A stretch of DNA of 64,000 nucleotides from Acutalibacteraceae bacterium (GTDB lineage: Bacteria; Bacillota; Clostridia; Oscillospirales; Acutalibacteraceae). How positions within the stretch are numbered: position 1 is the stretch's first letter; each line of letters starts with the position of its first letter. A program made the position numbers and the translations under genes. Shown one piece after another: positions 4,383 to 36,230 of the stretch. Location of the stretch: positions 9,858-73,857 of the forward strand of contig JAZLAJ010000048.1 in NCBI GenBank assembly GCA_045613145.1. The letters are read 5' to 3'. The notes under the pieces were generated by a model that was given only the letters and a program-made list of their open reading frames with translations, was not told the origin of the DNA and ran no database searches.

Positions 4383-5876
4383 TTATTCGTCGATATAGGG
4401 AATTTCGAAGCTGAATTCGGTATATTCTCCCTGCTTGCTCGAGGCATAAATTTCACCGTCGTGCATATTTATAATGGTTTTTACGATGTAAAGCCCGAGA
4501 CCCACACCCTTGGTATCATAAGAGCGTGATTTATCCACCTTGTAGAAACGCTCGAAAATACGTGCGATTTCTTCCTCGGATATGCCCTGTCCCGAATTTC
4601 TGATAGACACCTTTGTCAGCTCTCCGTCATTCGATGCGAAGATACTTATAGTACCTCTTTCGGGAGTGAATTTGACCGCATTATCCACCAGATTGTAAAT
4701 AACCTGCTGCACAAGGTCCTTATCGGCACGCATCATTACTGCACCCATTTCCTCGAAGCCTTCGATTTCTATCCGCTTTTCATTGATAGTCTTTTCAAAG
4801 GAAAGAAGAGTTTCAAAGACCTGTGCACTGACATCGTAAATGATGGGTGAAAGCTCTATTTCCCCTGCTTCAATTTTCGAAAGATTCAGCATGGAAACAA
4901 CCATACGGGAAAGTCTTTTCACCTCATTTGAAACGATTCCGAGATATTTCTTCTCTTCACCGGGAGGAATGGTTCCGTCCATTATTCCGTCAATAAATCC
5001 GCCTATGGAGGTCATAGGGGTTTTAAGCTCGTGGGAAACATTCGCCACAAAGCTCTTGCGGGAGTCTTCGTTTATTTTCAGCTCATATCCCATTTTATTA
5101 AGAGCCTTTGCGAAGTCATTAAGCTCACGGTTTTTATAGTTTTCTTTTGCTTTATGTCCGAAATCACCTTTAGCATAATGGTCTGTGATTTTCTGCATAT
5201 CGGAAAGCGGTACTGCTATGTCCCTTGTAATAATGAAAAGCGCTATGAACACAGCTATAAGAGCGATAATCAGAGAGTAGAAGAAGGATTCGATGATACG
5301 TACACTGTAAGGTACCAGACCGGTGATAGCATCCTCTACACCGAAGACCACAGCTACGGGAACCTCCTCCGCCCTGACCGGTGCTACAACTACAAAGGAG
5401 CCTATTTCGAAATCATCATCACTGATATAGTCGGAATACCTTCCCTTCAGCGCACGGTTTATATGATCTTCCGACACATCATAATTGCGGTGATTTTCAC
5501 ATCCGTGGTTTTTACCCGCCTGACAGTCACTGCAGTAAAGAACATTACCGTCTGTGTCAGTTATGAAATACTCTGAGAGAGTAGCCTTACCCATAGTGTT
5601 AAGCACATTATGAAGCGTCATTTCAGCAGCTGCCGCCTCAGCCTTACTCTTCTGCGGATTTTTATGAATAGAGAGCGCTACATAGGTTTCACATATATTG
5701 TTTATGTTCCGGTTAAGAGAAACATTCTTTTCGTCCCACCACTGGCTTCCTATAAACAGCATCATTACAAAGCATAAGATAATAAAGCCTACGGAAACGG
5801 CCAGTGCGGAACGGAAAAAATATTTACGCAGAATACCGGCTCTTTTCCTTCGTCGGAGACCTTTTCTTTTTGCCAT
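4383..5876 (-). CDS. sensor histidine kinase (two TM, extracytoplasmic domain, HAMP, HisKA, HATPase)
   Basis: It has the H-box SHELKTPMTSI, the N-box NLVDNAVKF and the G-box GVGLGLYIV. Confidence 0.9.
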   Translation of the reverse strand: MAKRKGLRRRKRAGILRKYFFRSALAVSVGFIILCFVMMLFIGSQWWDEKNVSLNRNINNICETYVALSIHKNPQKSKAEAAAAEMTLHNVLNTMGKATLSEYFITDTDGNVLYCSDCQAGKNHGCENHRNYDVSEDHINRALKGRYSDYISDDDFEIGSFVVVAPVRAEEVPVAVVFGVEDAITGLVPYSVRIIESFFYSLIIALIAVFIALFIITRDIAVPLSDMQKITDHYAKGDFGHKAKENYKNRELNDFAKALNKMGYELKINEDSRKSFVANVSHELKTPMTSIGGFIDGIMDGTIPPGEEKKYLGIVSNEVKRLSRMVVSMLNLSKIEAGEIELSPIIYDVSAQVFETLLSFEKTINEKRIEIEGFEEMGAVMMRADKDLVQQVIYNLVDNAVKFTPERGTISIFASNDGELTKVSIRNSGQGISEEEIARIFERFYKVDKSRSYDTKGVGLGLYIVKTIINMHDGEIYASSKQGEYTEFSFEIPYIDE

Positions 5877-23820: not shown

Positions 23821-26370
23821 ATGAAAAAATTACTTTTATCCCTTTCGGGAGCTTTTACCGTTCTGCTGATTCTGATTATTTCCTCAGTTTCCGCCTCGGC
23901 ATACTATTATGACGAAGCCGACGGTGCGTCCTTAGAATACACTGCCGATCTGGTAAACGGTACTGCTACCATCACCGACATCGACTACTATTACTATGGC
24001 GAAGAAATCATAATCCCTGAATATATTCCCTTCGGTGATTATGATGATTACTACTATGATGACGATTATTATGACTCCGAGGATATGGTTTTCCTGAAGG
24101 TAACCTCTATTGACTGCTGTATAGACATATCATATATCAGTTACGTTCAGATACCCGCCTCTGTCCAGTACATAAGAGAAAATGCCTTCTACAACGATGA
24201 TGAATATGAAAATAAAAGCTTCAGAATTTCCTGCGTCCGTGGAAGCTATGCGGACACCTACGCCCTCTCTAAGGGTCTTGCTACCGAGTATGTAAAGGAT
24301 TTTTCTTCTCTTGATATCAGTCTTTCAGGGACCGAGTTCACCTACACTTCCGAAAGAATATATCCCGATGTTACCGTAAAAGACGGTAATGTGACTCTCT
24401 CGAGAGGAACACACTATTCTCTTTATTATGAAAAGAACCGTAATGCAGGAACTGCCTCGGTATTTATTACCGCTTCCGGCAACTACTGCGGCGGTAAAAA
24501 GCTCTACTTTACCATAAAGCCTGTACCTGCCGCCTCAGTAACCGTATCCTCAGTCGAGGACTACGAATATTACGGTGAAGCCGCCGAGCCGTGGATAGAG
24601 CTTACCTATAATAATATGTGGCTCGATGAAGGAAGAGATTACACTTATTCCTACAGAAACAACCGCTACCCCGGAACTGCTTCTATAGATATAGTATTCA
24701 AAGGAAACTATGCCGGTACAAGGACAATTAATTTCAAAATAAAGCTTTCTGCTGTAACAAACCTGGAAGCCTACTCTTACTCTCCCAAGGAAGTCGATCT
24801 TTACTGGTCCTCATGGTCAAGCGAAGCGGACACATACTACATCTACCGTTACAGCAGCAGTAAGAAAAAATATGTATATGTAAATAAATCCGACAGCGGT
24901 TACTATACCGACAAAAAGCGCAAGCAATGTACACTGTATAAGTATAAGATAGTCCCCGTAGTGTTCAACGATAAAAAGGAGCCTGTCTACGGTGAAGCAG
25001 CATATACGGAATGCTACACCCTGATTTCTGCACCGAAAATCGAACTGACCACTCTCAAAAAGTCCATTGAAATCAGCTACTCTGAAAACACCGCTGCTGA
25101 CGGTTATGTAATTTACAGACAGAATGTTCTCACCTACTCTGAACCGGAGATTATAAAAACTGTAAAAAGTAACAAGAAGGGTACATATACGGACAAAAAA
25201 ATAGATCCGGATATCGTATATGCCTACTATGCAGTAGTTTACAAGACCATAAACGGAAAGCGTGTCTACGGCGAAAACAGTGACTACCATTATTCTGACG
25301 AGCCAAGTGCTGTTTTAAAAGGCGCCAAGCTGGATTCCCACAGAAGCTTCACCGTTTACGACACACAGGGCAAGAAAACAACCCAATACACCTACAATCT
25401 CAGTGACAATGATATTAAAATCCTCAAAAGCTTCGCCAAAAATCACTTCAAAAAAGGTATGACCGAAGAAGAGAAGCTTCGTTATACCCTCGAGTGGATT
25501 CACTATAATAACACCTATGCTTTAGGCGATGACTGGAATAAAATCTCAGGCAAATCCTGGGTTGAGGCTATTTTCAAATACAAGCTCGGTCAGTGTGCAC
25601 AATATAACGGTGCTCTGGCAGGTATGCTGGTTTATTTAGGCTATGATGCACGAGTTATAAAGGGCTACCGTGGCTACAGCTACACCGGATACAAGACTCA
25701 GCATTTTTGGTGCGAGGTAGTGATTCAGGGCAGAAGATATGTTATGGAAACAGGTAACTTCAAAAGAAACGGTTCCTGGAAATGCTTCCTTCTTCCGTAC
25801 AGCCAGTGCGGAGGCTACATAATCAATCAGCAGCCTGCCGAACTTGTAGTATACAAGCCTAAGGTAGATAAGGTTTCACTTTCAGAAACGAAATATGTTT
25901 ACAACGGAAAAGCAAAAAAACCGAAAATAACCGCAACTGACACTCACGGTAACACACTCACTGAAGGCAAGGATTATACCGTAACCTACAGTAAGGGCAG
26001 AAAAAAGGTCGGCAAATACAGTGTTACCGTTAAATTCAAGGGTAAATATTCAGGCTCCAAAAAGCTCACCTTCAGCATCGTTCCGAAAGCTACCTCAATT
26101 TCATCCCTTAAGGCCGGAAGTAAAAAATTCACGGTGAAATGGAAAAAGCAGACCACAGAGACCACCGGCTATCAGATTCAGTACAGTACATCTTCCAAGA
26201 TGAAAAAGGCAAAGACCGTAACGACGAAAAAGAACTCCTCTACCTCAAAATCCGTAAAGGAGCTTAAAAAAGGTAAGACCTACTATGTAAGAGTCAGAAC
26301 CTACAAAACAGTGTCCGGAAAGAATATTTATTCTTCCTGGTCAAAGATTAAAAAAATCAAGGTTAAATAA
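23821..26370 (+). CDS. secreted multidomain protein with transglutaminase-like cysteine protease core, Ig-like and FN3-like repeats
   Basis: It has a signal peptide and a core GQCAQYNG...HFWCEVV...METGN. The module xKPxVTxxxGxxLxxGxDYxxxYxxNxxxGTAxVxIxGxGNYxGxxxxxFxIxP is repeated. Confidence 0.75.
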   Translation: MKKLLLSLSGAFTVLLILIISSVSASAYYYDEADGASLEYTADLVNGTATITDIDYYYYGEEIIIPEYIPFGDYDDYYYDDDYYDSEDMVFLKVTSIDCCIDISYISYVQIPASVQYIRENAFYNDDEYENKSFRISCVRGSYADTYALSKGLATEYVKDFSSLDISLSGTEFTYTSERIYPDVTVKDGNVTLSRGTHYSLYYEKNRNAGTASVFITASGNYCGGKKLYFTIKPVPAASVTVSSVEDYEYYGEAAEPWIELTYNNMWLDEGRDYTYSYRNNRYPGTASIDIVFKGNYAGTRTINFKIKLSAVTNLEAYSYSPKEVDLYWSSWSSEADTYYIYRYSSSKKKYVYVNKSDSGYYTDKKRKQCTLYKYKIVPVVFNDKKEPVYGEAAYTECYTLISAPKIELTTLKKSIEISYSENTAADGYVIYRQNVLTYSEPEIIKTVKSNKKGTYTDKKIDPDIVYAYYAVVYKTINGKRVYGENSDYHYSDEPSAVLKGAKLDSHRSFTVYDTQGKKTTQYTYNLSDNDIKILKSFAKNHFKKGMTEEEKLRYTLEWIHYNNTYALGDDWNKISGKSWVEAIFKYKLGQCAQYNGALAGMLVYLGYDARVIKGYRGYSYTGYKTQHFWCEVVIQGRRYVMETGNFKRNGSWKCFLLPYSQCGGYIINQQPAELVVYKPKVDKVSLSETKYVYNGKAKKPKITATDTHGNTLTEGKDYTVTYSKGRKKVGKYSVTVKFKGKYSGSKKLTFSIVPKATSISSLKAGSKKFTVKWKKQTTETTGYQIQYSTSSKMKKAKTVTTKKNSSTSKSVKELKKGKTYYVRVRTYKTVSGKNIYSSWSKIKKIKVK

Positions 26371-26432: not shown

Positions 26433-27737
26433 TTAATGGGTCTTCCAGTTCTTTATTCCGTTGCCCCATTCGAGGATATAAATATCTACATTACGTCTTC
26501 CGAAGTTTCTGCAGTTATTATAACCGCGGATGTAAAGGTCAACCACTGTGTTGCTGGTGTAAATGAATCCGCCTGTGTCACTGGCTGTACAGTAACCATA
26601 ATTATACTTGCCGTCAGAGGAAACGATGTACATTTTAGTACCGTAGGGTATCTCTCTCGGGTCTACTGCCACACGTCCCGGCATAGCAGGTGCGCCTGTG
26701 GAACAGGTAGTGCCCGTACAGTAGGCTGTGGCCTTACCCGTGATAACCTTTTTATAATTGACGGGTCTGCCGTTTTTATTCAGCTGTATTTCGAAAGGCG
26801 GCTTGAGCTCGGAAATTACCTTGCCCGATTTTACTGTCGCACCGGTAAAGCCTGTGGAGCGTACCTTCGTACCTCTTACGATAATCTGTGTTACCGGTTT
26901 TTTGACCACCTTGGTACTCAGAATTTCTGTCTCTGCAATCTCACCGTCAACATATTTATACTTGTATTCGTTTACGCTTTTACCCTTTACGCCTTTTTTC
27001 TTGATCTTTCTCTGATCCTCATACAGGCTGTTATCATATTCAATCTTTGTTTTGAAATCTGTCTTTACGGTTTTGGTTTCCGTTTTATATTCGATTCTTT
27101 TAACTGTAATTGAGGTAGCCTTTTTAAGCTCCTTGGTCATTTTTTTCGAGATTTCGTCGAACTGACCGAGATTGATTCCCGTCTGCTTAAGCACACTCTC
27201 TACGGTACCGCCTGTTATATTAACCGTCTTCACCTTGCCGTCAACCTTGATTTTAACGGGGAAGGCACGGGTAATTTCGATTTTCATATCGTCAGTAATA
27301 CCCACTTCTTCATCGAAGTTAAGACTGTCTCCGTCCTTCAGCTTTACTCCTGCCTTGTCCAAAGCTGACTTTACGGTGCCTGCCACATTGACAGAAGCTA
27401 TCTGCTTTCCGTCGTCATAAATAAGCACATCGTGAGGCTCGGCTACGATAATGATTTTCTCTCCCCGGTCGGGATTATAGTAATCGAGGACCAGACTGTT
27501 GCTGTCATCGAGAGTAATGCCTGCTCTCTCTACGATTTCCTCAGGAGTTGCAGAAACGGTGACAACCTTATGCTGAACACCGTCACAGAAAACATAGGTA
27601 GCAGCCACATCCGATCTGTAAATAAGAAATCCGATCAGCAGAAAAAGCAGTGCTACACCGAAAGCAATAGCCTTTTTCGGGTTTATTCTTCTTATGAATG
27701 CGGTGCCGTTGATAAATCGCATCATATATCTGCCCAT
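26433..27737 (-). CDS. YabE/RpfB-like cell-wall protein (DUF348 repeats, G5 domain, C-terminal 3D/RlpA-like domain)
   Basis: It has an N-terminal TM, repeated DUF348-like segments, a G5-like middle region, and a C-terminus ATAYCTGTTCSTGAPAMPGRVAVDP...DTGG typical of 3D domains. Confidence 0.75.
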   Translation of the reverse strand: MGRYMMRFINGTAFIRRINPKKAIAFGVALLFLLIGFLIYRSDVAATYVFCDGVQHKVVTVSATPEEIVERAGITLDDSNSLVLDYYNPDRGEKIIIVAEPHDVLIYDDGKQIASVNVAGTVKSALDKAGVKLKDGDSLNFDEEVGITDDMKIEITRAFPVKIKVDGKVKTVNITGGTVESVLKQTGINLGQFDEISKKMTKELKKATSITVKRIEYKTETKTVKTDFKTKIEYDNSLYEDQRKIKKKGVKGKSVNEYKYKYVDGEIAETEILSTKVVKKPVTQIIVRGTKVRSTGFTGATVKSGKVISELKPPFEIQLNKNGRPVNYKKVITGKATAYCTGTTCSTGAPAMPGRVAVDPREIPYGTKMYIVSSDGKYNYGYCTASDTGGFIYTSNTVVDLYIRGYNNCRNFGRRNVDIYILEWGNGIKNWKTH

Positions 27738-27776: not shown

Positions 27777-27805
27777 ATTATACTGATTTGTACTTTTTTT
27801 GTCAA
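27777..27805 (-). promoter_or_regulatory. promoter of the yabE-like gene
   Basis: Minus strand: TTGACA, 17-nt spacer, TATAAT. Confidence 0.6.
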
Positions 27806-27952
27806 ATTCAGACTGATTTTTTCTTTAGTCAAGAAACACAAAAAAGCTCCCTGTTTTTTATTCAACAGGAACAATAACAGAAAAAAATATCACCGATATT
27901 CCGCATTTTATCCTTATTTCTTTCGTCAAAAAGAACAAAAATCTCAAAAGCC

Positions 27953-27981
27953 TTGACAAGTGCCTTTTTTTCCTCTAAAAT
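27953..27981 (+). promoter_or_regulatory. promoter of the lysin-cassette leader
   Basis: TTGACA (27953-27958), 17-nt spacer, TAAAAT (27976-27981). Confidence 0.6.
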
Positions 27982-28050
27982 TATATATAGCGGTACCGCA
28001 AAGCCGCTGAAAACCGAATATACCATCACAGATTTCAGTGATGCTTCAGA

Positions 28051-28094
28051 CTGCTGTTTTTCCCCTTCAGGAAAGGGAAAAAGGCAGTTTTTTT
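28051..28094 (+). terminator. strong intrinsic terminator inside the 5' leader, 25 nt upstream of the lysin SD
   Basis: ctgc-tg-tttttccc / gggaaaaa-g-gcag gives about 12 bp with a small internal loop, followed by T7. Confidence 0.65.
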
Positions 28095-28118
28095 GTTTTT
28101 TACAAGAAAGGAGCAAAT

Positions 28119-28877
28119 ATGAAAAACTATCTTATATATCCCTGTAAGACAATGAGAATCACTCAGAGCTACACGGGTACTACCTCACATCTTCCTCACA
28201 CTACAGGAAAGCCTGAGGATTATCCCATCGATGAAGGCTGCAGTGACACAGGCAGAGACTGGATTTACTGCCCCTGTGACGGAATGAAGATAAAGCGTAT
28301 CTACGGTGTCGGTACCGGCGGAACTAATACCCTATGGCTCGAAAGCACAGAAAAGGTTATCTTTGCTGACGGCAAGAAGGAATACTGCACTCTTCTCATC
28401 ACCCACCCCGACGATGCCGACCTTAAAAAGCTGAAGACAGGACAAATTTTCACCCGTAAAGAGAAAATCTGCCGTGAGGGTAAGGACGGAGCCTCAGCCT
28501 ACCATCTTCACATCTCAGCAGGCAAGGGTAAATTCAAAGGTAACGGCTGGACACGGAACAGCAAGGGTAAATATGTGCTTACCACCACAGGCGGGGCATT
28601 CAGACCTGAGAAACTTTTTTACATCGACGAAGCCTTCACTGATATTATCAGCACAAAAGGTCTCACCTTCAAAAAGATGCCTGTTTATACCGTAGGTGCT
28701 TATAAAGTAAACACTGCCGTTCTCAATGTCAGAAAAACGGCAGATGCTGATTCTGAAAAGGTCGGCACTCTCTTCAAGGGAAAGAAAATCACCGTAGACA
28801 AGGTAATCGGTGACCGGGGCAGAATCGGAAAGTACCGCTGGGTATGTCTCGATTACTGCAAGAAGGTGACGGAATGA
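28119..28877 (+). CDS. putative cell-wall metallopeptidase (HxH, LAS/M23-like) with C-terminal SH3b-like domain
   Basis: The ATG at 28119 follows AAAGGAG. It has the motifs SHLPHTTGKPEDYPID and GASAYHLHIS and an SH3b-like YKVNTAVLNVRKTADADSEKVGTLFKGKKITV. The track start at 28038 would read through the terminator. Confidence 0.55.
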   Translation: MKNYLIYPCKTMRITQSYTGTTSHLPHTTGKPEDYPIDEGCSDTGRDWIYCPCDGMKIKRIYGVGTGGTNTLWLESTEKVIFADGKKEYCTLLITHPDDADLKKLKTGQIFTRKEKICREGKDGASAYHLHISAGKGKFKGNGWTRNSKGKYVLTTTGGAFRPEKLFYIDEAFTDIISTKGLTFKKMPVYTVGAYKVNTAVLNVRKTADADSEKVGTLFKGKKITVDKVIGDRGRIGKYRWVCLDYCKKVTE

Positions 28878-29122
28878 GTGAAGCAGTCACCGTCGCCGTT
28901 ATCAGTCTTTTCGGCACTCTCGGAGGCAGTCTAATCGGTGTTCTTGCCTCGAACAGACTCACCGTCTACCGTATCGAGCAGCTCGAGAAGAAGGTAGAAA
29001 AGCATAACAACCTGGTCGAGCGCACCTATAAAATCGAAGAAGAACAGGAAGTAGAAAAAGAAAAGCTCAAGGTTATCAATCACAGGCTTGAAGACCTTGA
29101 AGGATTCCACAAGCTTAAATAA
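28874..29122 (+). CDS. small N-terminal-TM plus coiled-coil protein (XhlA/BhlA-like holin-associated)
   Basis: Its ATGA overlaps the lysin stop. The sequence is MSEAVTVAVISLFGTLGGSLIGVLASNRL followed by YRIEQLEKKVEKHNNLVERTYKIEEE...INHRLEDLE. Confidence 0.5.
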   Translation: MSEAVTVAVISLFGTLGGSLIGVLASNRLTVYRIEQLEKKVEKHNNLVERTYKIEEEQEVEKEKLKVINHRLEDLEGFHKLK

Positions 29123-29140
29123 ATGAAAGAAGGATTAATT

Positions 29141-29479
29141 ATGAAAAACATTGATTTAACACCCATCATTGAAGCATTCATCACTCTTATATCCGCAGTT
29201 ATTACTATAGTTATTATCCCTAAGGTAAGAGCTTATCTCAGTGAAAAGCTCTCAGCAGAGCAGAGAGAAAGCCTTAAGCAGTGGGTTAAGGTAGCCGTGG
29301 CTGCTGCGGAACAGCTTTATTCGGGCAAGACAGGTCAGCAGAAGAAGGAATACGTGGTTTCTTTTCTGCTCTCAAAAGGCATCGTAGCAGACATCGACGA
29401 GGTAACCGCACTCATCGAAAGCGAGGTTTACAAACTGTCTTCCGGAGCAAATAACGCTAAAAAAACCGACACAATATAA
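29141..29479 (+). CDS. LL-H-family holin-like protein
   Basis: It has an N-terminal TM (IIEAFITLISAVITIVIIP) followed by WVKVAVAAAEQLYSGKTGQQKKEYVVSFL, which resembles Holin_LLH proteins. Confidence 0.55.
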   Translation: MKNIDLTPIIEAFITLISAVITIVIIPKVRAYLSEKLSAEQRESLKQWVKVAVAAAEQLYSGKTGQQKKEYVVSFLLSKGIVADIDEVTALIESEVYKLSSGANNAKKTDTI

Positions 29480-29645: not shown

Positions 29646-30734
29646 ATGAGCGATAAAAGAAAAAAAGTTCTGCTTATTGTCAACCCCTGTGCAGGCAGAA
29701 CCAAATCAAGAGCAGGCACCTTTGAGATAGTCGATAAGTTCTCAAAAAACGATTACGAATTCACCGTCCGCACCACCACATGTCAGGGCGATGCTACGGC
29801 TATCGTTAAAAGAGAGCTTGATGAGCATGATATGGTAGTTTGCTGCGGCGGTGACGGAACACTCAACGAAACAGTAAACGGTGTAATGGATATGCCCCGC
29901 CGTGTCCCCATCGGATACATTCCCTCAGGCTCTACTAACGACCTTGCCACCACTCTCGGCATCCCCAAGGATATCAATGAAGCAACCGATCTGATTATGA
30001 GCGGTCAGCTTAACGATTATGACGTAGGTCTTTTCAATAACAGATACTTTACATATGTGGCCTCTTTCGGCGCCTTCACACGTTCCTCTTATGCCACAAG
30101 CCAGAAGCTGAAAAATAAATTCGGTTATCTCGCTTACCTTTCAACGGCAGTTCCCGAGGTTTTCAGCATTAAGAACTATAAGCTCAGAATCGAACACGAC
30201 GGCGGTGTAATCGAGGATTACTTCGTATTCGGCGCTATTTCAAACTCCACCTCTGTAGGCGGATTCGTTGATTTCGATACTGATGAAATAAAGCTTAACG
30301 ACGGTGTATTCGAGCTTCTTCTGTGTAAGGGTCTTTCCTTCACAGGTGTAGTTCCTGCTCTTCTTAAGATAAAACAGCGTAAGTTTGACAGCGATCCGCT
30401 TATCTTCCTTCACACTAAAAAGCTCAAGATTACCTGTCTCGAAGGTGAAATGGACTGGACTCTCGACGGTGAATACGGCGGAAAGCATAAAAATGTTATG
30501 GTTCACGTGCTTAACGGTGCCGTACACATCTGCTCCTCAGAAAATCCTCTCTTCGAAAAGCACGAAATCCCCGAATTCACTCCTGCAGCAACCCACAGTG
30601 AAGAAAAGGACGATGTAAAGGAAAAGAAATTTTTTAAAAAGCGCAGAGCGCACAAAACAGAGCTTTCCGAAGTATCGGAGGATACCTCAGAAGCAATCGC
30701 AGAAGACAGCGAAAAAGACGAAACCACTGTCTGA
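29646..30734 (+). CDS. diacylglycerol kinase-family lipid kinase (DagK/YegS/BmrU type)
   Basis: The ATG at 29646 follows GAAGG. It has LLIVNPCAGR and GGDGTLNE motifs and an acidic/Lys-rich C-terminal tail. Confidence 0.85.
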   Translation: MSDKRKKVLLIVNPCAGRTKSRAGTFEIVDKFSKNDYEFTVRTTTCQGDATAIVKRELDEHDMVVCCGGDGTLNETVNGVMDMPRRVPIGYIPSGSTNDLATTLGIPKDINEATDLIMSGQLNDYDVGLFNNRYFTYVASFGAFTRSSYATSQKLKNKFGYLAYLSTAVPEVFSIKNYKLRIEHDGGVIEDYFVFGAISNSTSVGGFVDFDTDEIKLNDGVFELLLCKGLSFTGVVPALLKIKQRKFDSDPLIFLHTKKLKITCLEGEMDWTLDGEYGGKHKNVMVHVLNGAVHICSSENPLFEKHEIPEFTPAATHSEEKDDVKEKKFFKKRRAHKTELSEVSEDTSEAIAEDSEKDETTV

Positions 30735-30873
30735 ACTCCTTTTCGTGAATTATAAAAATCTTCCAGAAGAACTCTTTGTGAAAAAAACTGTTGAAAATAC
30801 ATATACTTTATTGTATAATATTACACGAGTTAAATAAATTCTGTAATTTTGTAAACTATTTTTTAATAAATTG

Positions 30874-30902
30874 TTGACAATAAAAAATTATTAAGGTATA
30901 CT
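30874..30902 (+). promoter_or_regulatory. consensus promoter of micro-ORF P3
   Basis: TTGACA, 17-nt spacer, TATACT. A second TTGAAA-17-TATAAT promoter lies about 85 nt upstream (about 30788-30816). Confidence 0.6.
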
Positions 30903-30942
30903 GTTGGTGTAGACAGATTAAATTCAGTGAGGAGGAACGACT

Positions 30943-31041
30943 TTGGATTTTATGGATTACATCAGAGCTCTTATAAACTTTATAATGAAGTTGGTTGCCC
31001 TCTTCAAAAACGAGGATGCCCCTGAAGAGAACCAGAAATAA
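30943..31041 (+). CDS. micro-protein P3, 32 aa (29 aa from the ATG at 30952), amphipathic helix plus acidic tail
   Basis: GGAGG (30931-30935) lies 7 nt before the TTG at 30943. The peptide is (M)DFMDYIRALINFIMKLVALFKNEDAPEENQK. Confidence 0.5.
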   Translation: MDFMDYIRALINFIMKLVALFKNEDAPEENQK

Positions 31042-31052
31042 TCTGAGAAATT

Positions 31053-31094
31053 AAAGCAGGCTGTTACATAATGTAACAGCCTTTTAATTTTTTT
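31053..31094. terminator. bidirectional terminator
   Basis: Stem aggctgttaca taa tgtaacagcct is followed by a T-run. Confidence 0.75.
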
Positions 31095-32037
31095 ATTTAA
31101 GATTCTCTGAAATATCCATTTTTCCGATAAGCTTATCCAGCTTTTTTTCTATCCTTCCCATACGCATATCCTGAAGTACTTCTGAACGGTAGGTCATAAA
31201 AGCATCCTCGTCATCAGTGGCTATGGTCTGTCTTTCGATAACATAGATGCTGTCCCCGGATTTAACGGCTTTGGCTCTGCCGTGAGTGACTGAGCTTACA
31301 TCGTCGAAAAATCCGTCATCATACATAGGATCGCCCTTTTTCGTCAGCATCACCGAAAGCGGAGAAGTGACGATGATGCCGAGCGAGTCATTATATTCCG
31401 CATTCAGTTCATCGATGGAAGCAGTTCCCTGATTTATGCTTTCTGCCATAGACGAAAAAAGCTTTTCCGTTTCTTTTATCTCTTTATCGGAAAGAGGTAC
31501 GGTTTCACCCTTATCGTTGGTTTTGGTCAATGACCCTTCGATAGCCTTAAAGCCCACATACATATCAACGAATCTTTCTTTAAGATCCATTTCCTTTACC
31601 GGCTCCTTACCTTCCGCACCGTAAAAATAGTCAAGAAGCTGAAGCAGACGGCTTTCGTGAGTCTCTGCTCTGGTAATATCCTGCTTGGTAACACCTATAC
31701 TATTATAATAATCAGAAAAAAGTCCCCAGATACTTTCAGTGTTTTCGGCGGCGAGTCGCTTGAATTCACTTCCGAGAGTAATTTTTTCCTTTTCCATCAG
31801 CTTTATGGCGGCAAGATATTCCTTACAGCACTGCTTTACCGCTTCATTAATACTGTTTTCATCCTCCGCTACAGCAGAATATTCCTCAGGTGAAGCAGAA
31901 ACAGCTGCTTTATAATAATTATAAAGTCCTTCGGTGACTACATGGCTTTCGAAGGTAAAGGGATGCTCCTCTTTACCGCAGGAGGCAAAGGAAAATAAAA
32001 TCAGCATCGCAGAAATAAGAGCAAAAAGCTTTTTCAT
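31093..32037 (-). CDS. lipoprotein, unknown function
   Basis: It has a signal peptide with the lipobox LFSFASC. Confidence 0.7.
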   Translation of the reverse strand: MKKLFALISAMLILFSFASCGKEEHPFTFESHVVTEGLYNYYKAAVSASPEEYSAVAEDENSINEAVKQCCKEYLAAIKLMEKEKITLGSEFKRLAAENTESIWGLFSDYYNSIGVTKQDITRAETHESRLLQLLDYFYGAEGKEPVKEMDLKERFVDMYVGFKAIEGSLTKTNDKGETVPLSDKEIKETEKLFSSMAESINQGTASIDELNAEYNDSLGIIVTSPLSVMLTKKGDPMYDDGFFDDVSSVTHGRAKAVKSGDSIYVIERQTIATDDEDAFMTYRSEVLQDMRMGRIEKKLDKLIGKMDISENLK

Positions 32038-32122
32038 TCAGTATCAGCCTTTCATTTGGTTGTTTTGGTTATTATACACTATTTTTCCCCTCTTGTCTAC
32101 CGAATATTTTAACCGTAAACTA

Positions 32123-32151
32123 TTGACATTACCTTGTTTTACTGATATAAT
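32123..32151 (+). promoter_or_regulatory. promoter of the rpsF operon
   Basis: TTGACA, 17-nt spacer, TATAAT. Confidence 0.7.
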
Positions 32152-32241
32152 CCTTAATTGTCGCAGTATGCAAAGGCATATTACGGCATTCCTTGCTCCG
32201 GACAAGAGCCGGGGCCAGAGACCATAAGGAGGTAAAAAGAC
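32152..32241 (+). promoter_or_regulatory. structured rpsF leader (candidate S6:S18 autoregulatory element)
   Basis: A 90-nt leader with hairpins tatgc/gcata and ctccgg/ccgggg ahead of AAGGAGG. Confidence 0.35.
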
Positions 32242-32532
32242 ATGAACAAATATGAGACTATGTTCGTATTTTCTACTGCAAAGGGTGAAGAAGGCGTAAG
32301 TGCACTTACTGAAAAGTTCAAGGCACTCGTTGAAGCAAACGGCACTCTCGCTTCTGCTGAAGCTTTCGGCAGCAACGGCGGTGTTCGCACACTTGCTTAC
32401 GAAATCAATGACGAAACACAGGGCGCATACATGCTCTTCAACTACGAAGCTGCTACCACTCTTCCTGCTGAAATCGAGCGTATTGCCGGTATCACAGATG
32501 GCGTTCTCCGTGTTCTCACAGTCAGAAAGTAA
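32242..32532 (+). CDS. rpsF: 30S ribosomal protein S6
   Basis: MNKYETMFVF... in the classic rpsF-ssb-rpsR order. Confidence 0.95.
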   Translation: MNKYETMFVFSTAKGEEGVSALTEKFKALVEANGTLASAEAFGSNGGVRTLAYEINDETQGAYMLFNYEAATTLPAEIERIAGITDGVLRVLTVRK

Positions 32533-32544
32533 GGAGGAGCACTC

Positions 32545-32979
32545 ATGCTTAACTGCGTAACACTTATGGGCCGCCTCGTGGCAGACCCTGAACTTCGCAC
32601 CACTACTACAGGAAAGAACGTATGTACTTTCCGTATCGCTGTCGACCGTTCATTCCAGAAACCCGGAGAACAGAGACAGGCAGACTTCATCACCATCGTA
32701 GCATGGGAAAACACTGCAACCTTCGTAAGCAGATACTTCGCTAAAGGTTCTATGATCGCTGTACAGGGCTCTATCCAGACCCGTAATTACCAGGATACAA
32801 ACGGTAATAACAGAACAGCCTTCGAGGTTCTCGCCAGAGAAGTAAGCTTCTGTGGCTCAAAGGCTGAGACCGGAACACAGGCTCCTGCCGTTTCTGCAGC
32901 AGCTCCTGCTCCCGCTTATCAGACTGCAGTTCCCTCTGATTTCGAAGAAATCACAGATGATGATGATTTACCCTTTTAA
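32545..32979 (+). CDS. ssb: single-stranded DNA-binding protein
   Basis: An OB-fold N-terminus and the acidic tail DDDLPF. Confidence 0.95.
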   Translation: MLNCVTLMGRLVADPELRTTTTGKNVCTFRIAVDRSFQKPGEQRQADFITIVAWENTATFVSRYFAKGSMIAVQGSIQTRNYQDTNGNNRTAFEVLAREVSFCGSKAETGTQAPAVSAAAPAPAYQTAVPSDFEEITDDDDLPF

Positions 32980-33006
32980 TTAAAATATTACAGGAGGAAA
33001 ATACTC

Positions 33007-33252
33007 ATGGCATACGAAAAAGGCGCTAATCGCCCCAACAGAAAGTCACGTAAAAAGGTTTGTGCATTCTGCGTAGATAAGGTTGAAGAAATCGACTACA
33101 AGGATGTTCAGAAGCTCCGTAAGTTCACTTCTGACAGAGCTAAGATCCTTCCCCGCAGAGTAACAGGTACCTGCGCTCGTCATCAGCGTGAACTCACCAC
33201 AGCTATCAAGCGTGCACGTCAGGTTGCACTCATGGCTTACACAGCTGACTGA
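33007..33252 (+). CDS. rpsR: 30S ribosomal protein S18
   Basis: [16 protein letters not shown]...[18 protein letters not shown]. Confidence 0.95.
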
Positions 33253-33266
33253 TTTTAAAAGTATGG

Positions 33267-33300
33267 ACGGTATGACCGAAAGGTCATACCGTTTTCTTTT
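33267..33300 (+). terminator. intrinsic terminator of the rpsF operon
   Basis: Stem acggtatgacc gaaa ggtcataccgt is followed by a T-run. Confidence 0.8.
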
Positions 33301-33417
33301 TCATATAACAGCTATCTTTCTTTTTATAAAAACCTATTGCAAAAACAAATCAAATGAGTTAAAATCAGTTATAACTATTTATGAAAGGAAGACACCCCCG
33401 GTGTCAGGCTTTTTAAA

Positions 33418-34782
33418 ATGAACATTATTGTGACAGGCTGCGGAAAAATTGGTACTGCTGTAGTGTCCGCCCTCGTAAATGAGGGTCACGATGTTACTGC
33501 CTTAGACGAAAACCCTGCAGTCATTAATGAAATAACCAATGTTTACGATGTGATGGCTGTATGCGGTAACGGTACCGACTGCGAAACTCTCGAAGAAGCG
33601 AGAATAGACTGCTGTGACATCTTCGTAGCAGTTACCGGCTCCGATGAGCTTAATATGCTTTCCTGCTTCATCGCAAAAAAGATGGGTGCAAAGCATACGG
33701 TGGCACGAATCAGAAACCCCGAATATAATGACCGCTCTCTTTCCTTTATGCGTCATCAGCTCGAGCTTTCCCGTTCCATAAACCCCGAACTTATGATGGC
33801 ACAGGAGCTTCACAACCTTCTCAAGCTTCCCTCAGCCTACAAGGTAGAATATTTCTCGGGACGCAATCTCGAAATGATAGAGGTAAGACTGAAAAAAGAC
33901 TCCTCTCTCGCCGGCAAAAAAATCAGCAGAATCCGAGACAGAGAAAAGCAGCATTTTCTTATCGGTGCTGTTTTAAGAGAAAATGAGCTTCACATTCCTG
34001 ACGGTAATTTCGAGCTTCGTGAAGGTGACACAGTAAGCATCATCGCTACTCCCTCTGATATGCAGAAGCTTCTTAAGAGTCTTGATATGATTAAAAAAGC
34101 GGTCAGAGATGTTATGATCATCGGCGGAAGCAAGACAGCCTTTTATCTGGCGAAAATCCTTTCATCTACAGGTACCAATGTAAAAATCATAGAAAAGAAC
34201 AGAGACCATTGTGTAAAGCTCAGCGAGCTTCTGCCAAAAACTGACATCATACACGGAGACGGCTCCCATCACGATGTTCTTATGGAAGAAGGTCTTCGCT
34301 CCATCGATGCCTTCGTGGCACTGACGGGCATGGACGAGGAAAACATCCTCACCTCTCTTTTCGCAGGCGAGTTCAATGTACCTAAGGTAATAACAAAAAT
34401 CAACAGCAACGAGCTGACGAAAATGGGTGAAAAGTTAGGTCTTGACAGTGTCATTTCCTCTAAAAGCATTACTGCAGACATCATTATCCGTTATGCCCGT
34501 GCTCTGGAGAATTCTACGGGAAGCAACATCGAAACTCTGTACAAATTTATGGACGGCAAGGCTGAGGCTATCGAATTCAATGTCAGAGAAGGCTCAAAAA
34601 TCATCGGCATTCCCATTAAAGAGCTTTCGCTTAAGCCGGGTATACTCATCGCAGGAATAATCCGTGAAAGAAAAACCGCTGTAATCCCCACCGGTGACAC
34701 TGTAATCAATGAAGGCAACCGTGTAATCGTTCTTGCTTCGGCATCTCACAGACTCGGTGATTTATCTGATATTCTGAGGTAA
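33418..34782 (+). CDS. trkA: Trk-system potassium uptake protein TrkA (two RCK/NAD-binding modules)
   Basis: MNIIVTGCGKIGTAV and a second IIGGSKTAFYLA Rossmann motif. Confidence 0.9.
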   Translation: MNIIVTGCGKIGTAVVSALVNEGHDVTALDENPAVINEITNVYDVMAVCGNGTDCETLEEARIDCCDIFVAVTGSDELNMLSCFIAKKMGAKHTVARIRNPEYNDRSLSFMRHQLELSRSINPELMMAQELHNLLKLPSAYKVEYFSGRNLEMIEVRLKKDSSLAGKKISRIRDREKQHFLIGAVLRENELHIPDGNFELREGDTVSIIATPSDMQKLLKSLDMIKKAVRDVMIIGGSKTAFYLAKILSSTGTNVKIIEKNRDHCVKLSELLPKTDIIHGDGSHHDVLMEEGLRSIDAFVALTGMDEENILTSLFAGEFNVPKVITKINSNELTKMGEKLGLDSVISSKSITADIIIRYARALENSTGSNIETLYKFMDGKAEAIEFNVREGSKIIGIPIKELSLKPGILIAGIIRERKTAVIPTGDTVINEGNRVIVLASASHRLGDLSDILR

Positions 34783-34787
34783 CGATA

Positions 34788-36230
34788 ATGAACAGACGTA
34801 TGGTTTTATATGTGGTCGGTAAGGTGGTAATGGTGGAAGGCGGTCTTCTGCTTTTACCCCTCGTGACTGCTCTGATTTACAAAGAAGCTGTCGCCTTAAG
34901 TATAAGTATTTCTATTGCGGTAGCATTGATCTCAGGCTTCTTACTTACTAAAATTTTCAAACCCGGACTAAAGACTATTTATGCGAAAGAGGGCTTTGTT
35001 ATAACGGCTCTGTCATGGCTTGCCCTTTCTGCCGTGGGCGCTCTGCCCTTTTTTATCAGCGGAGAAATCCCCTCTTATATCGATGCTTTCTTCGAAACCG
35101 TAAGCGGTCTTACTACCACCGGTGCTTCGATTCTGACAGATGTGGAAAGCATGAGCAAGGGACTTCTTATGTGGCGTTCCTTTACTCATTGGGTAGGCGG
35201 TATGGGTGTTCTCGTTTTCGTTATGGCTATTATACCGTCTCTTTCCGACCGTTCAATCCATCTTCTGCGTGCAGAGGTTCCCGGTCCTGTGGTAGGAAAA
35301 ATCGTTCCGAGAATAAGAGAAACAACCCGTATTCTTTATATTATATACATCGTGCTTACTCTTACTGAGGCTGTTTTCCTTCTTTTCGGCGGAATGAATC
35401 TTTTCGAAGCTCTCGTCCACGCTTTCGCTACGGCGGGTACAGGCGGCTTCGCAATAAAAGCTGACGGACTGGCATCCTACAGCTCTTATCTTCAGTGGGT
35501 AATTACTGTGTTTATGCTTCTTTTCGGTGTTAACTTTAACCTTTATTACCTTATCCTCTTAAAGAAGATAAAATCGGTTTTCAAAAGCAGTGAGCTGTGG
35601 ACTTATATAAGCATAGTCACAGTAGCCGCAGTTATTATCGGCATAAACATTTCAGGTCTTTATGATACTGTGGCAGAAACAGTAAAGCACTCTGTTTTCC
35701 AGGTCGCTTCAGTTATAACAACCACAGGCTTCGCAACCACCGATTTCAACTTATGGCCTAATTTATCAAAGATGATAATCTTTATCCTTATGTTCGTCGG
35801 CGGCTGTGCCGGTTCTACAGCAGGCGGCATAAAAATAGCACGAGTTATGATGTTCACCAAAATATGTAAAACAGAGCTTCAGAGAATGCTCCATCCCAGA
35901 AGCGTTAAAGTAAACCGCTTCGAGGGTAAGGCTCTCGACAGCGGAACTATGGCCTCTGTTAATTCATATCTTACGATTTATGTAATGTTCTTCTTCGTGT
36001 TCCTTTTCGCTGTCGCTTTCAGCGGTGCTGATGTGGACATTACGATTTCAGCTGTAACATCCTGCTTCAATAACATCGGTCCCGCCTTCGGCTTTGCAGG
36101 TCCTATGGGAAGCTACGCTGACTTCCCCCAGTTGACTAAGGTTTTCCTTTCGATGGCTATGCTTTTCGGCAGATTGGAAATCTACCCCGTCATCCTCACT
36201 CTTTCACCCTCCACCTGGGCGAAGAAATAA
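34788..36230 (+). CDS. trkH: TrkH-family potassium transporter
   Basis: A 480-aa polytopic protein with repeated selectivity-filter-like TTTG/GTGG/TTTGF/STAGG segments. Confidence 0.9.
   Translation: MNRRMVLYVVGKVVMVEGGLLLLPLVTALIYKEAVALSISISIAVALISGFLLTKIFKPGLKTIYAKEGFVITALSWLALSAVGALPFFISGEIPSYIDAFFETVSGLTTTGASILTDVESMSKGLLMWRSFTHWVGGMGVLVFVMAIIPSLSDRSIHLLRAEVPGPVVGKIVPRIRETTRILYIIYIVLTLTEAVFLLFGGMNLFEALVHAFATAGTGGFAIKADGLASYSSYLQWVITVFMLLFGVNFNLYYLILLKKIKSVFKSSELWTYISIVTVAAVIIGINISGLYDTVAETVKHSVFQVASVITTTGFATTDFNLWPNLSKMIIFILMFVGGCAGSTAGGIKIARVMMFTKICKTELQRMLHPRSVKVNRFEGKALDSGTMASVNSYLTIYVMFFFVFLFAVAFSGADVDITISAVTSCFNNIGPAFGFAGPMGSYADFPQLTKVFLSMAMLFGRLEIYPVILTLSPSTWAKK

Follow-up and report, generated by a model that had tools for sequence, protein, structure and literature searches.

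What are phage-type lysis genes doing between ordinary chromosomal genes? This question is raised by a stretch of 64,000 nucleotides from an Acutalibacteraceae bacterium (assembly GCA_045613145.1, contig JAZLAJ010000048.1, positions 9,858 to 73,857), which is called the window in the following. It contains three tightly packed open reading frames (ORFs) on the plus strand, whose products are most plausibly a wall-cutting enzyme (lysin), an XhlA-like membrane protein, and a holin. A first-pass annotation of the window had reported this cassette at the coordinates at which we find it, and had offered two readings, namely the last remnant of a prophage or a domesticated holin/endolysin module. 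We consider it probable that the cassette is a domesticated phage lysis module, which the genus keeps at a place in the chromosome and which has a regulation of its own. This supports the second of the two earlier readings: the cassette is fixed beside the gene yabE, signs of purifying selection were found, and a promoter and a leader of its own are conserved. The remnant reading is contradicted by the intact ORFs, the same signs of selection, the fixed locus, and the lack of phage genes or att repeats. Judging from the genes, the most likely function is a gated, holin-dependent lysis of a fraction of the cells, which would be triggered by damage in many species of the genus. The features of the cassette and its control region are:

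27933..27944, plus strand: decayed LexA (Cheo) box with the left half-site only, 20 bp before the -35 hexamer
27953..27981, plus strand: cassette promoter of the sigma-70 type (TTGACA, 17 nt, TAAAAT), 11/12 consensus matches
27982..28118, plus strand: 5' leader of 137 nt, indicated by fold z-score, conservation, and the covariance model R1
27990..28007, plus strand: hairpin 1 of the leader, loop with CCGCAAAG
28025..28042, plus strand: hairpin 2 of the leader, 7 bp
28050..28101, plus strand: intrinsic terminator of the leader (GC-rich stem 28050-28087, T-run 28088-28101)
28107..28113, plus strand: ribosome-binding site (RBS) of the lysin, directly after the terminator
28119..28877, plus strand: predicted endolysin of 252 residues, gp13-type M23 metallo-endopeptidase (residues 1 to about 190) with a C-terminal SH3b domain (AlphaFold2, Foldseek, profile)
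28874..29122, plus strand: XhlA-like protein of 82 residues with an N-terminal transmembrane helix and a charged helical region (sub-cutoff match to Pfam XhlA; phrog_1863)
29141..29479, plus strand: holin of the LL-H family, 112 residues, with one N-terminal transmembrane helix (PF09682, phrog_6918)

Position, descent and selection in the genus

The genome that contains the window (G000) consists of 92 contigs with 2.97 Mb in total and is 94% complete. The genus set comprised 117 genomes, of which 47 are of high quality and many are incomplete. Lysin homologues occur in 91 of them (33 of the 47 high-quality genomes) and holin homologues in 104; yabE was found in 80 at a threshold of E≤1e-20 (E, expectation value). 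For the lysin, 112 places were compared, with 9 weak or partial rows excluded. At 43 of these places, the lysin gene lies 304-1964 bp from yabE on one contig; 33 of the pairs are divergent (29 at 304-472 bp), and 10 are co-directional at 666-886 bp. The holin gene is located at most 6 kb from yabE in 47 of the 65 genomes that have both, and contig ends split two more. We fetched 40 yabE-adjacent loci, which represent 40 other species, and 60 of the 66 lysin places away from yabE; G070:C70 was fetched later, and G123:C1, G066:C211, G131:C53, G078:C28, and G064:C104 were left out of the latter set. All 40 yabE-adjacent loci contain lysin and holin, and the XhlA-like gene is detectable in 33 of them. 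A check for inactivating mutations in these sister species found the lysin and holin ORFs open and intact in 40/40 loci; one of these (L036) has ATA at the lysin start.

The identity of YabE to the protein of the window drops to about 34-50% across the fetched species; therefore, the association of yabE and cassette is old. The flanks on the far side vary by clade and comprise trkH/trkA, isocitrate dehydrogenase (icd), RF-1, a PIG-L deacetylase, or ABC transporters. No phage family was found with Pfam among 63 flanking ORFs of 12 loci, and no conserved cargo gene lies beside the cassette, the housekeeping flanks being variable between clades. At about ten further loci, the cassette is located beside an aminotransferase/aldolase pair, with no yabE match on that contig. 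Beyond the genus, a search of 298 genomes from 184 other genera of the family gave no lysin (E≤1e-20).

Selection was assessed by means of the ratio of nonsynonymous to synonymous substitution rates (dN/dS), determined according to Nei and Gojobori (NG86). For the window's clade, which comprises 11 species both here and in the leader alignment, the lysin has a median value of 0.094, the XhlA-like gene of 0.057, the holin of 0.061, and yabE of 0.078; the corresponding medians of a second clade are 0.131, 0.081, 0.078, and 0.113, all of these being rough estimates. The pair formed by the window and its closest relative G007 is unsaturated and gave values of 0.091 (lysin), 0.035 (XhlA-like), 0.206 (holin), and 0.055 (yabE). 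The identities of lysin and holin track that of YabE (Mantel rho 0.68 and 0.67, with 0/999 permutations as high), in a test which is inflated by genome relatedness. By these measures, the cassette is under purifying selection and co-diverges with yabE. The comparison of synteny and selection across species thus found the trio beside yabE, free of phage genes, and constrained at the protein level.

In the window itself, the neighborhood of the cassette contains the following features:

26433..27737, minus strand: yabE-like wall protein (G5, DUF348, and 3D domains in Pfam), the conserved divergent neighbor of the cassette
27777..27805, minus strand: yabE promoter, perfect 12/12 sigma-70 consensus, about 40 bp upstream of the yabE start codon
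29646..30734: lipid kinase with a DAGK_cat domain (Pfam)

Pfam thus agrees with the first-pass annotation, which had named a YabE-like wall protein and a lipid kinase as flanking genes. Its observation that phage genes and att-like repeats are missing was also reproduced: a scan of 23 ORFs between 12997 and 44036 gave no match to a phage family, and only short imperfect repeats were seen beside the cassette. The base composition of the region is unremarkable, and the wider neighborhood comprises rpsF-ssb-rpsR, trkA/trkH, spoIIR, and tRNA synthetase genes.

Some further observations concern these neighbors. The perfect sigma-70 promoter of yabE is kept in the clade. Between an FAD oxidoreductase gene and yabE, at 23821-26370, lies the gene of a secreted protein of 849 residues with transglutaminase-core and fn3 domains; a tblastn search found no such gene at that place in G007 and in nine more loci of the clade, and the gene looks like a lineage-specific insertion. 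In the close relatives L029, L032, L035, and L038, trkH/trkA are convergent against the holin end, and dagK is located 5-9 kb away in the opposite orientation. The segment from dagK to trkH (window positions 29646-36230) appears to be inverted in the genome of the window and in G007, which places dagK beside the holin.

Control region and gene products

The region upstream of the lysin gene is conserved in a way that points to a regulatory unit. Both promoter hexamers are invariant in the 11 species of the window's clade. The leader has a fold z-score of -3.8, and 0/200 shuffled sequences were equally stable. The loop of hairpin 1 and the arms of the terminator are conserved in these species, and the spacers in between drift. 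Compensatory changes were found at the base of hairpin 2, which is a CG pair in 7 species, AU in 3, and GU in 1; two pairs of hairpin 1 vary too. The covariance model R1 was built from the leaders of the 11 close species only, since a MAFFT alignment of all leaders mis-registered hairpin 1 between clades. R1 gave 48 matches in 46 of the 117 genomes, usually one per genome and a single one in the genome of the window. About 43 of these matches are located directly upstream of lysin/holin genes, one lies beside a yabE gene where no lysin was detected, and four lie elsewhere. In Rfam, no family reached its gathering score over the whole window, and the leader itself had chance-level matches only. 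A regulon search by means of a regular expression for promoter and CCGCAA resulted in 24 matches in the genome of the window, with the layout of promoter and leader at the cassette only. For copies adjacent to tail genes (L072, L074, L076, L106), a motif scan found no leader of the CCGCA type.

A strong promoter is thus followed by a terminator ahead of the lysis genes; therefore, expression of the cassette should depend on conditional read-through. The lambdoid late promoter and the terminator ahead of the lysis genes of colicins are comparable designs. As a possible antiterminator, a pairing of the hairpin-1 loop with a terminator arm was considered and dropped, because inspection by eye revealed no pairing that is consistent across clades. 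In many species (L041-L062, L064-L066; L142:~4830-4930), the leader terminator and the lysin are separated by a small hydrophobic ORF of about 30 residues. The second clade and the species at the greatest distance have it, and the window's clade lacks it; this ORF could be a fourth component of the cassette, perhaps a regulator of the holin.

The second element of the control region is a LexA box in relatives. A perfect GAACAAATGTTC is located 21-22 bp upstream of the -35 hexamer (TTGACA) in 19 of the 40 yabE-adjacent loci, and one further locus contains it with a single mismatch. The motif is of the GAAC-N4-GTTC type, which is the established LexA box of Firmicutes. It is also present in a clade in which the cassette is inverted relative to yabE; therefore, the box belongs to the cassette. 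The genome of the window contains 44 perfect GAAC-N4-GTTC sites in its 2.97 Mb, and the exact 12-mer of GAACAAATGTTC occurs in it twice, 16 bp before the gene of a Y-family polymerase (IMS domains) and before a gene with sigma70_r4 and HTH_3 domains. The lexA gene of this genome has two boxes with 11 of 12 positions, and recA has CGAACATTTGTACG directly behind its -10 hexamer; together with the polymerase gene, these two genes validated the type of the box. The corresponding place in the window's clade (27933-27944 in the window) retains the left half alone, and SOS control of the cassette was probably lost or weakened there. As a side observation, the gene with sigma70 region 4 and HTH_3 that follows the exact 12-mer (C17:7816; L144:106-912) encodes a candidate SOS-controlled regulator, which could drive phage-like modules.

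What the three genes encode can be judged with differing confidence. The lysin ORF, with both sequence motifs quoted in the first-pass annotation, was found at 28119-28877 (252 residues). An alignment of 33 lysin homologues (A1) was the basis for an AlphaFold2 model, whose mean predicted local distance difference test (pLDDT) value is 88.9, and for a sequence profile. The top match of the model in Foldseek is the wall-degrading enzyme gp13 of phage phi29 (3csq; E 2.5e-10, 191 columns), with a query-normalized template modeling (TM) score of 0.58 and about 20% identity. Further matches are the M23-type proteins lysostaphin (4lxc/5nmy), LytM, ShyA, Csd3, and EnvC, and the SH3b domain of 9ovi for the C-terminus. 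The profile likewise matches 3csq (E 0.002; the best sequence-profile match) and the SH3b chain 2kq8 (E 4.4e-4). With Pfam, SH3_3 was the sole family reported (23.4 bits at the C-terminus, slightly below the 27-bit cutoff), and Peptidase_M23 gave no match at E≤1. As this profile is silent, the enzyme should belong to a divergent, gp13-like branch.

Seven residues, H24, H27, D34, D38, H96, H129, and H131, are invariant across the 33 homologues. The HxH motif corresponds to H129-x-H131, and the His, Asp, and HxH positions of gp13 align with invariant residues of the lysin. The spacing of His and Asp differs from the canonical HxxxD; zinc ligands are predicted among H24/H27 and D34/D38. The lysin has no signal peptide, transmembrane helix, or hydrophobic segment. 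According to the model, it is a gp13-type M23 endopeptidase fused to an SH3b domain, and the earlier call of an HxH metallopeptidase with an SH3b domain is borne out by the AlphaFold2 model, the Foldseek search, and the profile matches. It would thus represent a compact enzyme of this type that escapes recognition by Pfam. Among records of isolate phages, three distant matches with 31% identity were found, namely the endolysin of a Clostridium phage and a microvirus ORF in two records.

The ATG of the 82-residue ORF overlaps the TGA of the lysin, as had been noted, and this ATGA overlap couples the XhlA-like gene translationally to the lysin. The protein has a single hydrophobic, presumably membrane-spanning segment (residues 7-25). 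It is matched by phrog_1863 (E 5.7e-13), and Pfam XhlA (PF10779) gave 20.2 bits versus a cutoff of 34.7; 17 of 28 relatives match XhlA at E≤0.01, none being reported over the cutoff. Of the earlier assignment to XhlA, the architecture with its N-terminal transmembrane helix and charged helix therefore stands, whereas the score stays under the Pfam cutoff. The call of an LL-H holin needs no such restriction: PF09682 (Phage_holin_6_1/Holin_LLH) scores 44 bits versus a cutoff of 24.9, phrog_6918 (holin) supports it with E 4.7e-20, and a transmembrane segment is located at residues 9-27.

From these parts, the following course of events is proposed. The strong sigma-A-type promoter would fire, and most transcripts would end at the leader terminator just ahead of the lysin RBS. 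A trigger would cause read-through, and for about half of the related species, this trigger would include the release of LexA in the SOS response. The signal-less M23-SH3b endopeptidase would then build up in the cytoplasm, and the membrane would be opened by the LL-H holin jointly with the XhlA-like protein. The enzyme would get to the wall and cut peptide cross-links, the producer cell would lyse, and its contents would be released. Read-through control, holin-dependent export, lysis, and the released material are steps that we infer from the sequence. A sporulation-specific lysis of the mother cell was considered and rejected on account of the near-consensus sigma-70 promoter and the LexA box of relatives, no scan for sporulation sigma promoters having been made.

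Prophage copies and competing explanations

A second copy of the cassette exists in the same genome. On contig C79, an apparently complete prophage of the siphovirus type with portal, head, tape measure, and tail genes spans about 64.6-87.2 kb, and the copy is located at its end; the lysins are 87% and the holins 66% identical. As a sister copy ends a prophage in the very same genome, the cassette is clearly of phage origin. The DNA homology between the window and the C79 copy extends only from 28100 to about 29320, with identities of 82% and 73%; it therefore starts past the chromosomal leader, which the prophage copy lacks. Note that a Tad2-like gene (Thoeris anti-defense) is located in the prophage between the XhlA-like gene and the holin, and that the LL-H holin of the prophage is longer (186 residues). 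Other copies away from yabE follow tail-fibre/spike genes (L074, L076, L106) or large PHROG proteins whose function is unknown, or are neighbors of a cI-like repressor (L071). In G011 (L141:12890-14313), promoter/leader, XhlA-like gene, and holin are kept, and a CHAP-domain lysin replaces the M23 enzyme, which shows a modular swapping of the enzyme inside a fixed chromosomal cassette.

A quick tree of the lysin was computed from 100 rows (41 yabE-adjacent, 9 aminotransferase-adjacent, 50 others), omitting 2 partial rows and the 5 lysin places never fetched. The label "yabE" requires 14 changes in this tree versus 31.8 expected under shuffling, which signals strong clustering. The same tree contributes to the points that weigh against a module kept by the host. 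The copy of the genome's own prophage and three other copies away from yabE (L068-L070) nest within the window's clade; therefore, the chromosomal locus and the phages of the host group exchange lysis genes, and the conservation could partly reflect repeated replacement from phages. Moreover, the LexA box is decayed in the window's clade, and the window contains no box within one mismatch. Homologues of the holin are missing in 13/117 genomes and lysins of the M23 type in 26/117, many of these genomes being incomplete. In most species pairs, dS is saturated (>1), which makes most dN/dS values rough. Hairpin 1 shows few compensatory changes and may act as an operator at the DNA level instead of as an RNA element. 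Finally, the lysis function is deduced from the genes.

Could the cassette, then, be a neutral prophage remnant, or the result of repeated hot-spot integrations near yabE, without any host function? Its phage origin, the DNA identity of 82% that it shares with the lysis genes of the genome's prophage, and the interleaving of prophage and chromosomal copies in the lysin tree are compatible with this view. A neutral remnant is, however, hard to reconcile with ORFs that are intact in 40/40 loci, with dN/dS values of about 0.06-0.13, and with the co-divergence with yabE. Nor does it account for the cassette-specific promoter and leader, which are lacking in the prophage copies examined, and no phage genes, integrase, or att-like repeats were found beside the cassette. 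We regard this explanation as improbable. A role as wall-remodeling partner of YabE in growth, separation, sporulation, or germination, for which the holin would serve as export route only, appears slightly more improbable still: the adjacency in 47 of the 65 genomes with both genes, which includes the clade with the cassette inverted in place, would be in agreement with it, but about ten loci are located beside aminotransferase/aldolase with no yabE match on the contig, yabE and cassette have separate promoters, and the adjacency may merely mark an ancestral insertion site.

A holin and a wall hydrolase without phage structural genes might also constitute a secretion device similar to the type 10 secretion system (T10SS) or a trigger of vesicle formation, by which signal-less proteins, peptides, or vesicles would be released sub-lethally. 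Tight gating by a leader terminator would suit expression at a low level, and precedents have been described in the T10SS and in the vesicles that depend on PBSX xhlAB-xlyA in Bacillus subtilis, as outlined in PMC5589764. On the other hand, there is no conserved cargo gene, and the far-side flanks differ by clade; the lysin is complete and conserved, and has 87% identity with a prophage endolysin that looks functional; and in relatives, the LexA box speaks for lysis that is induced by damage. We consider secretion or vesicle release unlikely, although less so than the two preceding explanations. The domesticated lysis module remains the reading that we prefer.

A possible client and known lysis systems

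If the cassette lyses its producer, a further question is what the lysis would release. Terminase matches in the genome of the window were found on C79, i. e. the prophage, and on C61, which contains a head module:

C61:13055-19423 (L133:4056-10424): terS, terL, portal, two head-associated genes, major capsid, and three small genes

No recognizable tail genes follow on C61 before other genes and the contig end; note that this contig breaks off within or right behind the module, which limits the view of any lysis genes of its own. The terL gene of the C61 type is single-copy in 114/117 genomes of the genus (47/47 of those with high quality), and its identity declines as relatedness decreases, from 97% down to 63%. 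In a survey of the family, which comprised 301 genomes of 185 genera, it was found in 194 genomes and 126 genera (E≤1e-60). Synteny of the head genes was found in 20/20 loci from other genera, of which at least 9 run on into LysM, sheath, or baseplate genes. The head module looks like an old domesticated element that resembles a gene transfer agent (GTA) or PBSX and is distributed family-wide.

In one distant member of the genus (G070), the lysin and XhlA-like genes adjoin a small ORF that is holin-like but of a different kind, and terS and terL follow on the same strand without a break. We tentatively put forward that a split, domesticated element similar to a GTA (or to PBSX) might have its dedicated lysis locus in the cassette, with gating by LexA and by a leader that would need a dedicated read-through factor; this is a possibility to which we give distinctly less weight than to domestication as such. 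The leader, consisting of a 5' hairpin with a conserved CCGCAA loop and an intrinsic terminator, would then be a previously undescribed one, and LexA control would be ancestral. Several findings argue against the link. Cassette and head module are contiguous only in G070 and unlinked elsewhere, for example 57 kb apart in G013; the six terS loci viewed have neither a LexA box nor a CCGCA motif in their upstream regions, which speaks against shared control; R1 has no match at the head module; and terL is far more widespread than the cassette. Queries with baseplate-hub and sheath proteins of other genera gave no match in the genome of the window, which we count on the same side, the result being uninformative as a test. 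If the cassette were indeed the exit route of the head module, this would help to account for the DNA packaging of a GTA-like kind that was observed recently in Oscillospiraceae and Ruminococcaceae of the gut, and would provide a genetic switch for testing such packaging.

The cassette can be compared with several systems known from other bacteria. XlyA of PBSX, a defective, damage-inducible prophage of B. subtilis, is an amidase, whereas the enzyme described here is predicted to be an M23-type endopeptidase. Both PBSX and the cassette combine an XhlA-type or XhlA-like membrane protein, a holin, and a signal-less endolysin in the host chromosome. They differ in the order of the genes, which is lysin, XhlA-like, holin in our case, and in the holin, which here belongs to the LL-H family; in addition, the XhlA similarity of the 82-residue protein is under the Pfam cutoff. 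The cassette is a stand-alone unit with a promoter and a leader to itself, whereas the PBSX genes end a late operon. According to the account in PMC5589764, lysis and the release of vesicles require xhlA, xhlB, and xlyA, all three of them, and the expression of these genes goes up under genotoxic stress.

With respect to the arrangement of lysis and structural genes, the Rhodobacter capsulatus GTA (RcGTA) is a parallel. Its endolysin-holin locus rcc00555-rcc00556 is described in PMC5026251 as lying at a great distance from the structural cluster and as having resided in the host lineage since the Rhodobacterales ancestor. In our case too, lysis locus and head cluster are both conserved and mostly unlinked; the host of RcGTA is an unrelated Gram-negative bacterium, the proteins are unrelated, and the functional link between cassette and head module is a possible one here. 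For Faecalibacterium prausnitzii, a candidate GTA has been outlined (bioRxiv 10.1101/2024.11.15.623857) with the heads in operon I and tail parts, holin, and endolysin in operon II, about 125 kb apart. There, a head operon with terS, terL, portal, scaffold, and capsid is kept throughout a genus of gut Clostridia and the lysis genes are found at a second locus, which resembles the situation here; according to that description, on which the comparison of the two systems is based, the lysis genes of F. prausnitzii sit with baseplate/fibre genes, whereas those of the cassette stand alone.

The T10SS of C. difficile (TcdE/TcdL) is likewise described as a phage-derived holin with a peptidoglycan hydrolase that was domesticated by the host. 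By that description, its genes adjoin those of the cargo and the endolysin is a remnant, in contrast to the complete enzyme without linked cargo in the cassette. The C-terminal domain of phi29 gp13 (3csq), finally, is the best structural and profile match of the lysin, with aligned His, Asp, and HxH positions. In gp13, this domain is part of an entry enzyme of the tail tip with an N-terminal lysozyme domain; here it would be the catalytic part of an exit endolysin that is fused to SH3b.

Stand-alone holin/endolysin modules that are kept by the host have thus been known from a few model systems, namely PBSX, RcGTA, and T10SS. What distinguishes the cassette is its genus-wide fixation at the side of yabE, a promoter-leader-terminator unit that is undescribed so far, a LexA box that appears to have been lost in one clade, the swapping of the lysin, and a plausible connection to the family-wide head module. 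The cassette was traced over more than 100 uncultured species of Clostridia, with a defined and conserved control region. It may offer three testable handles on the sacrifice of cells in the anaerobes of this family: the LexA box in some species, the leader terminator in nearly all of them, and an enzyme that can be swapped.

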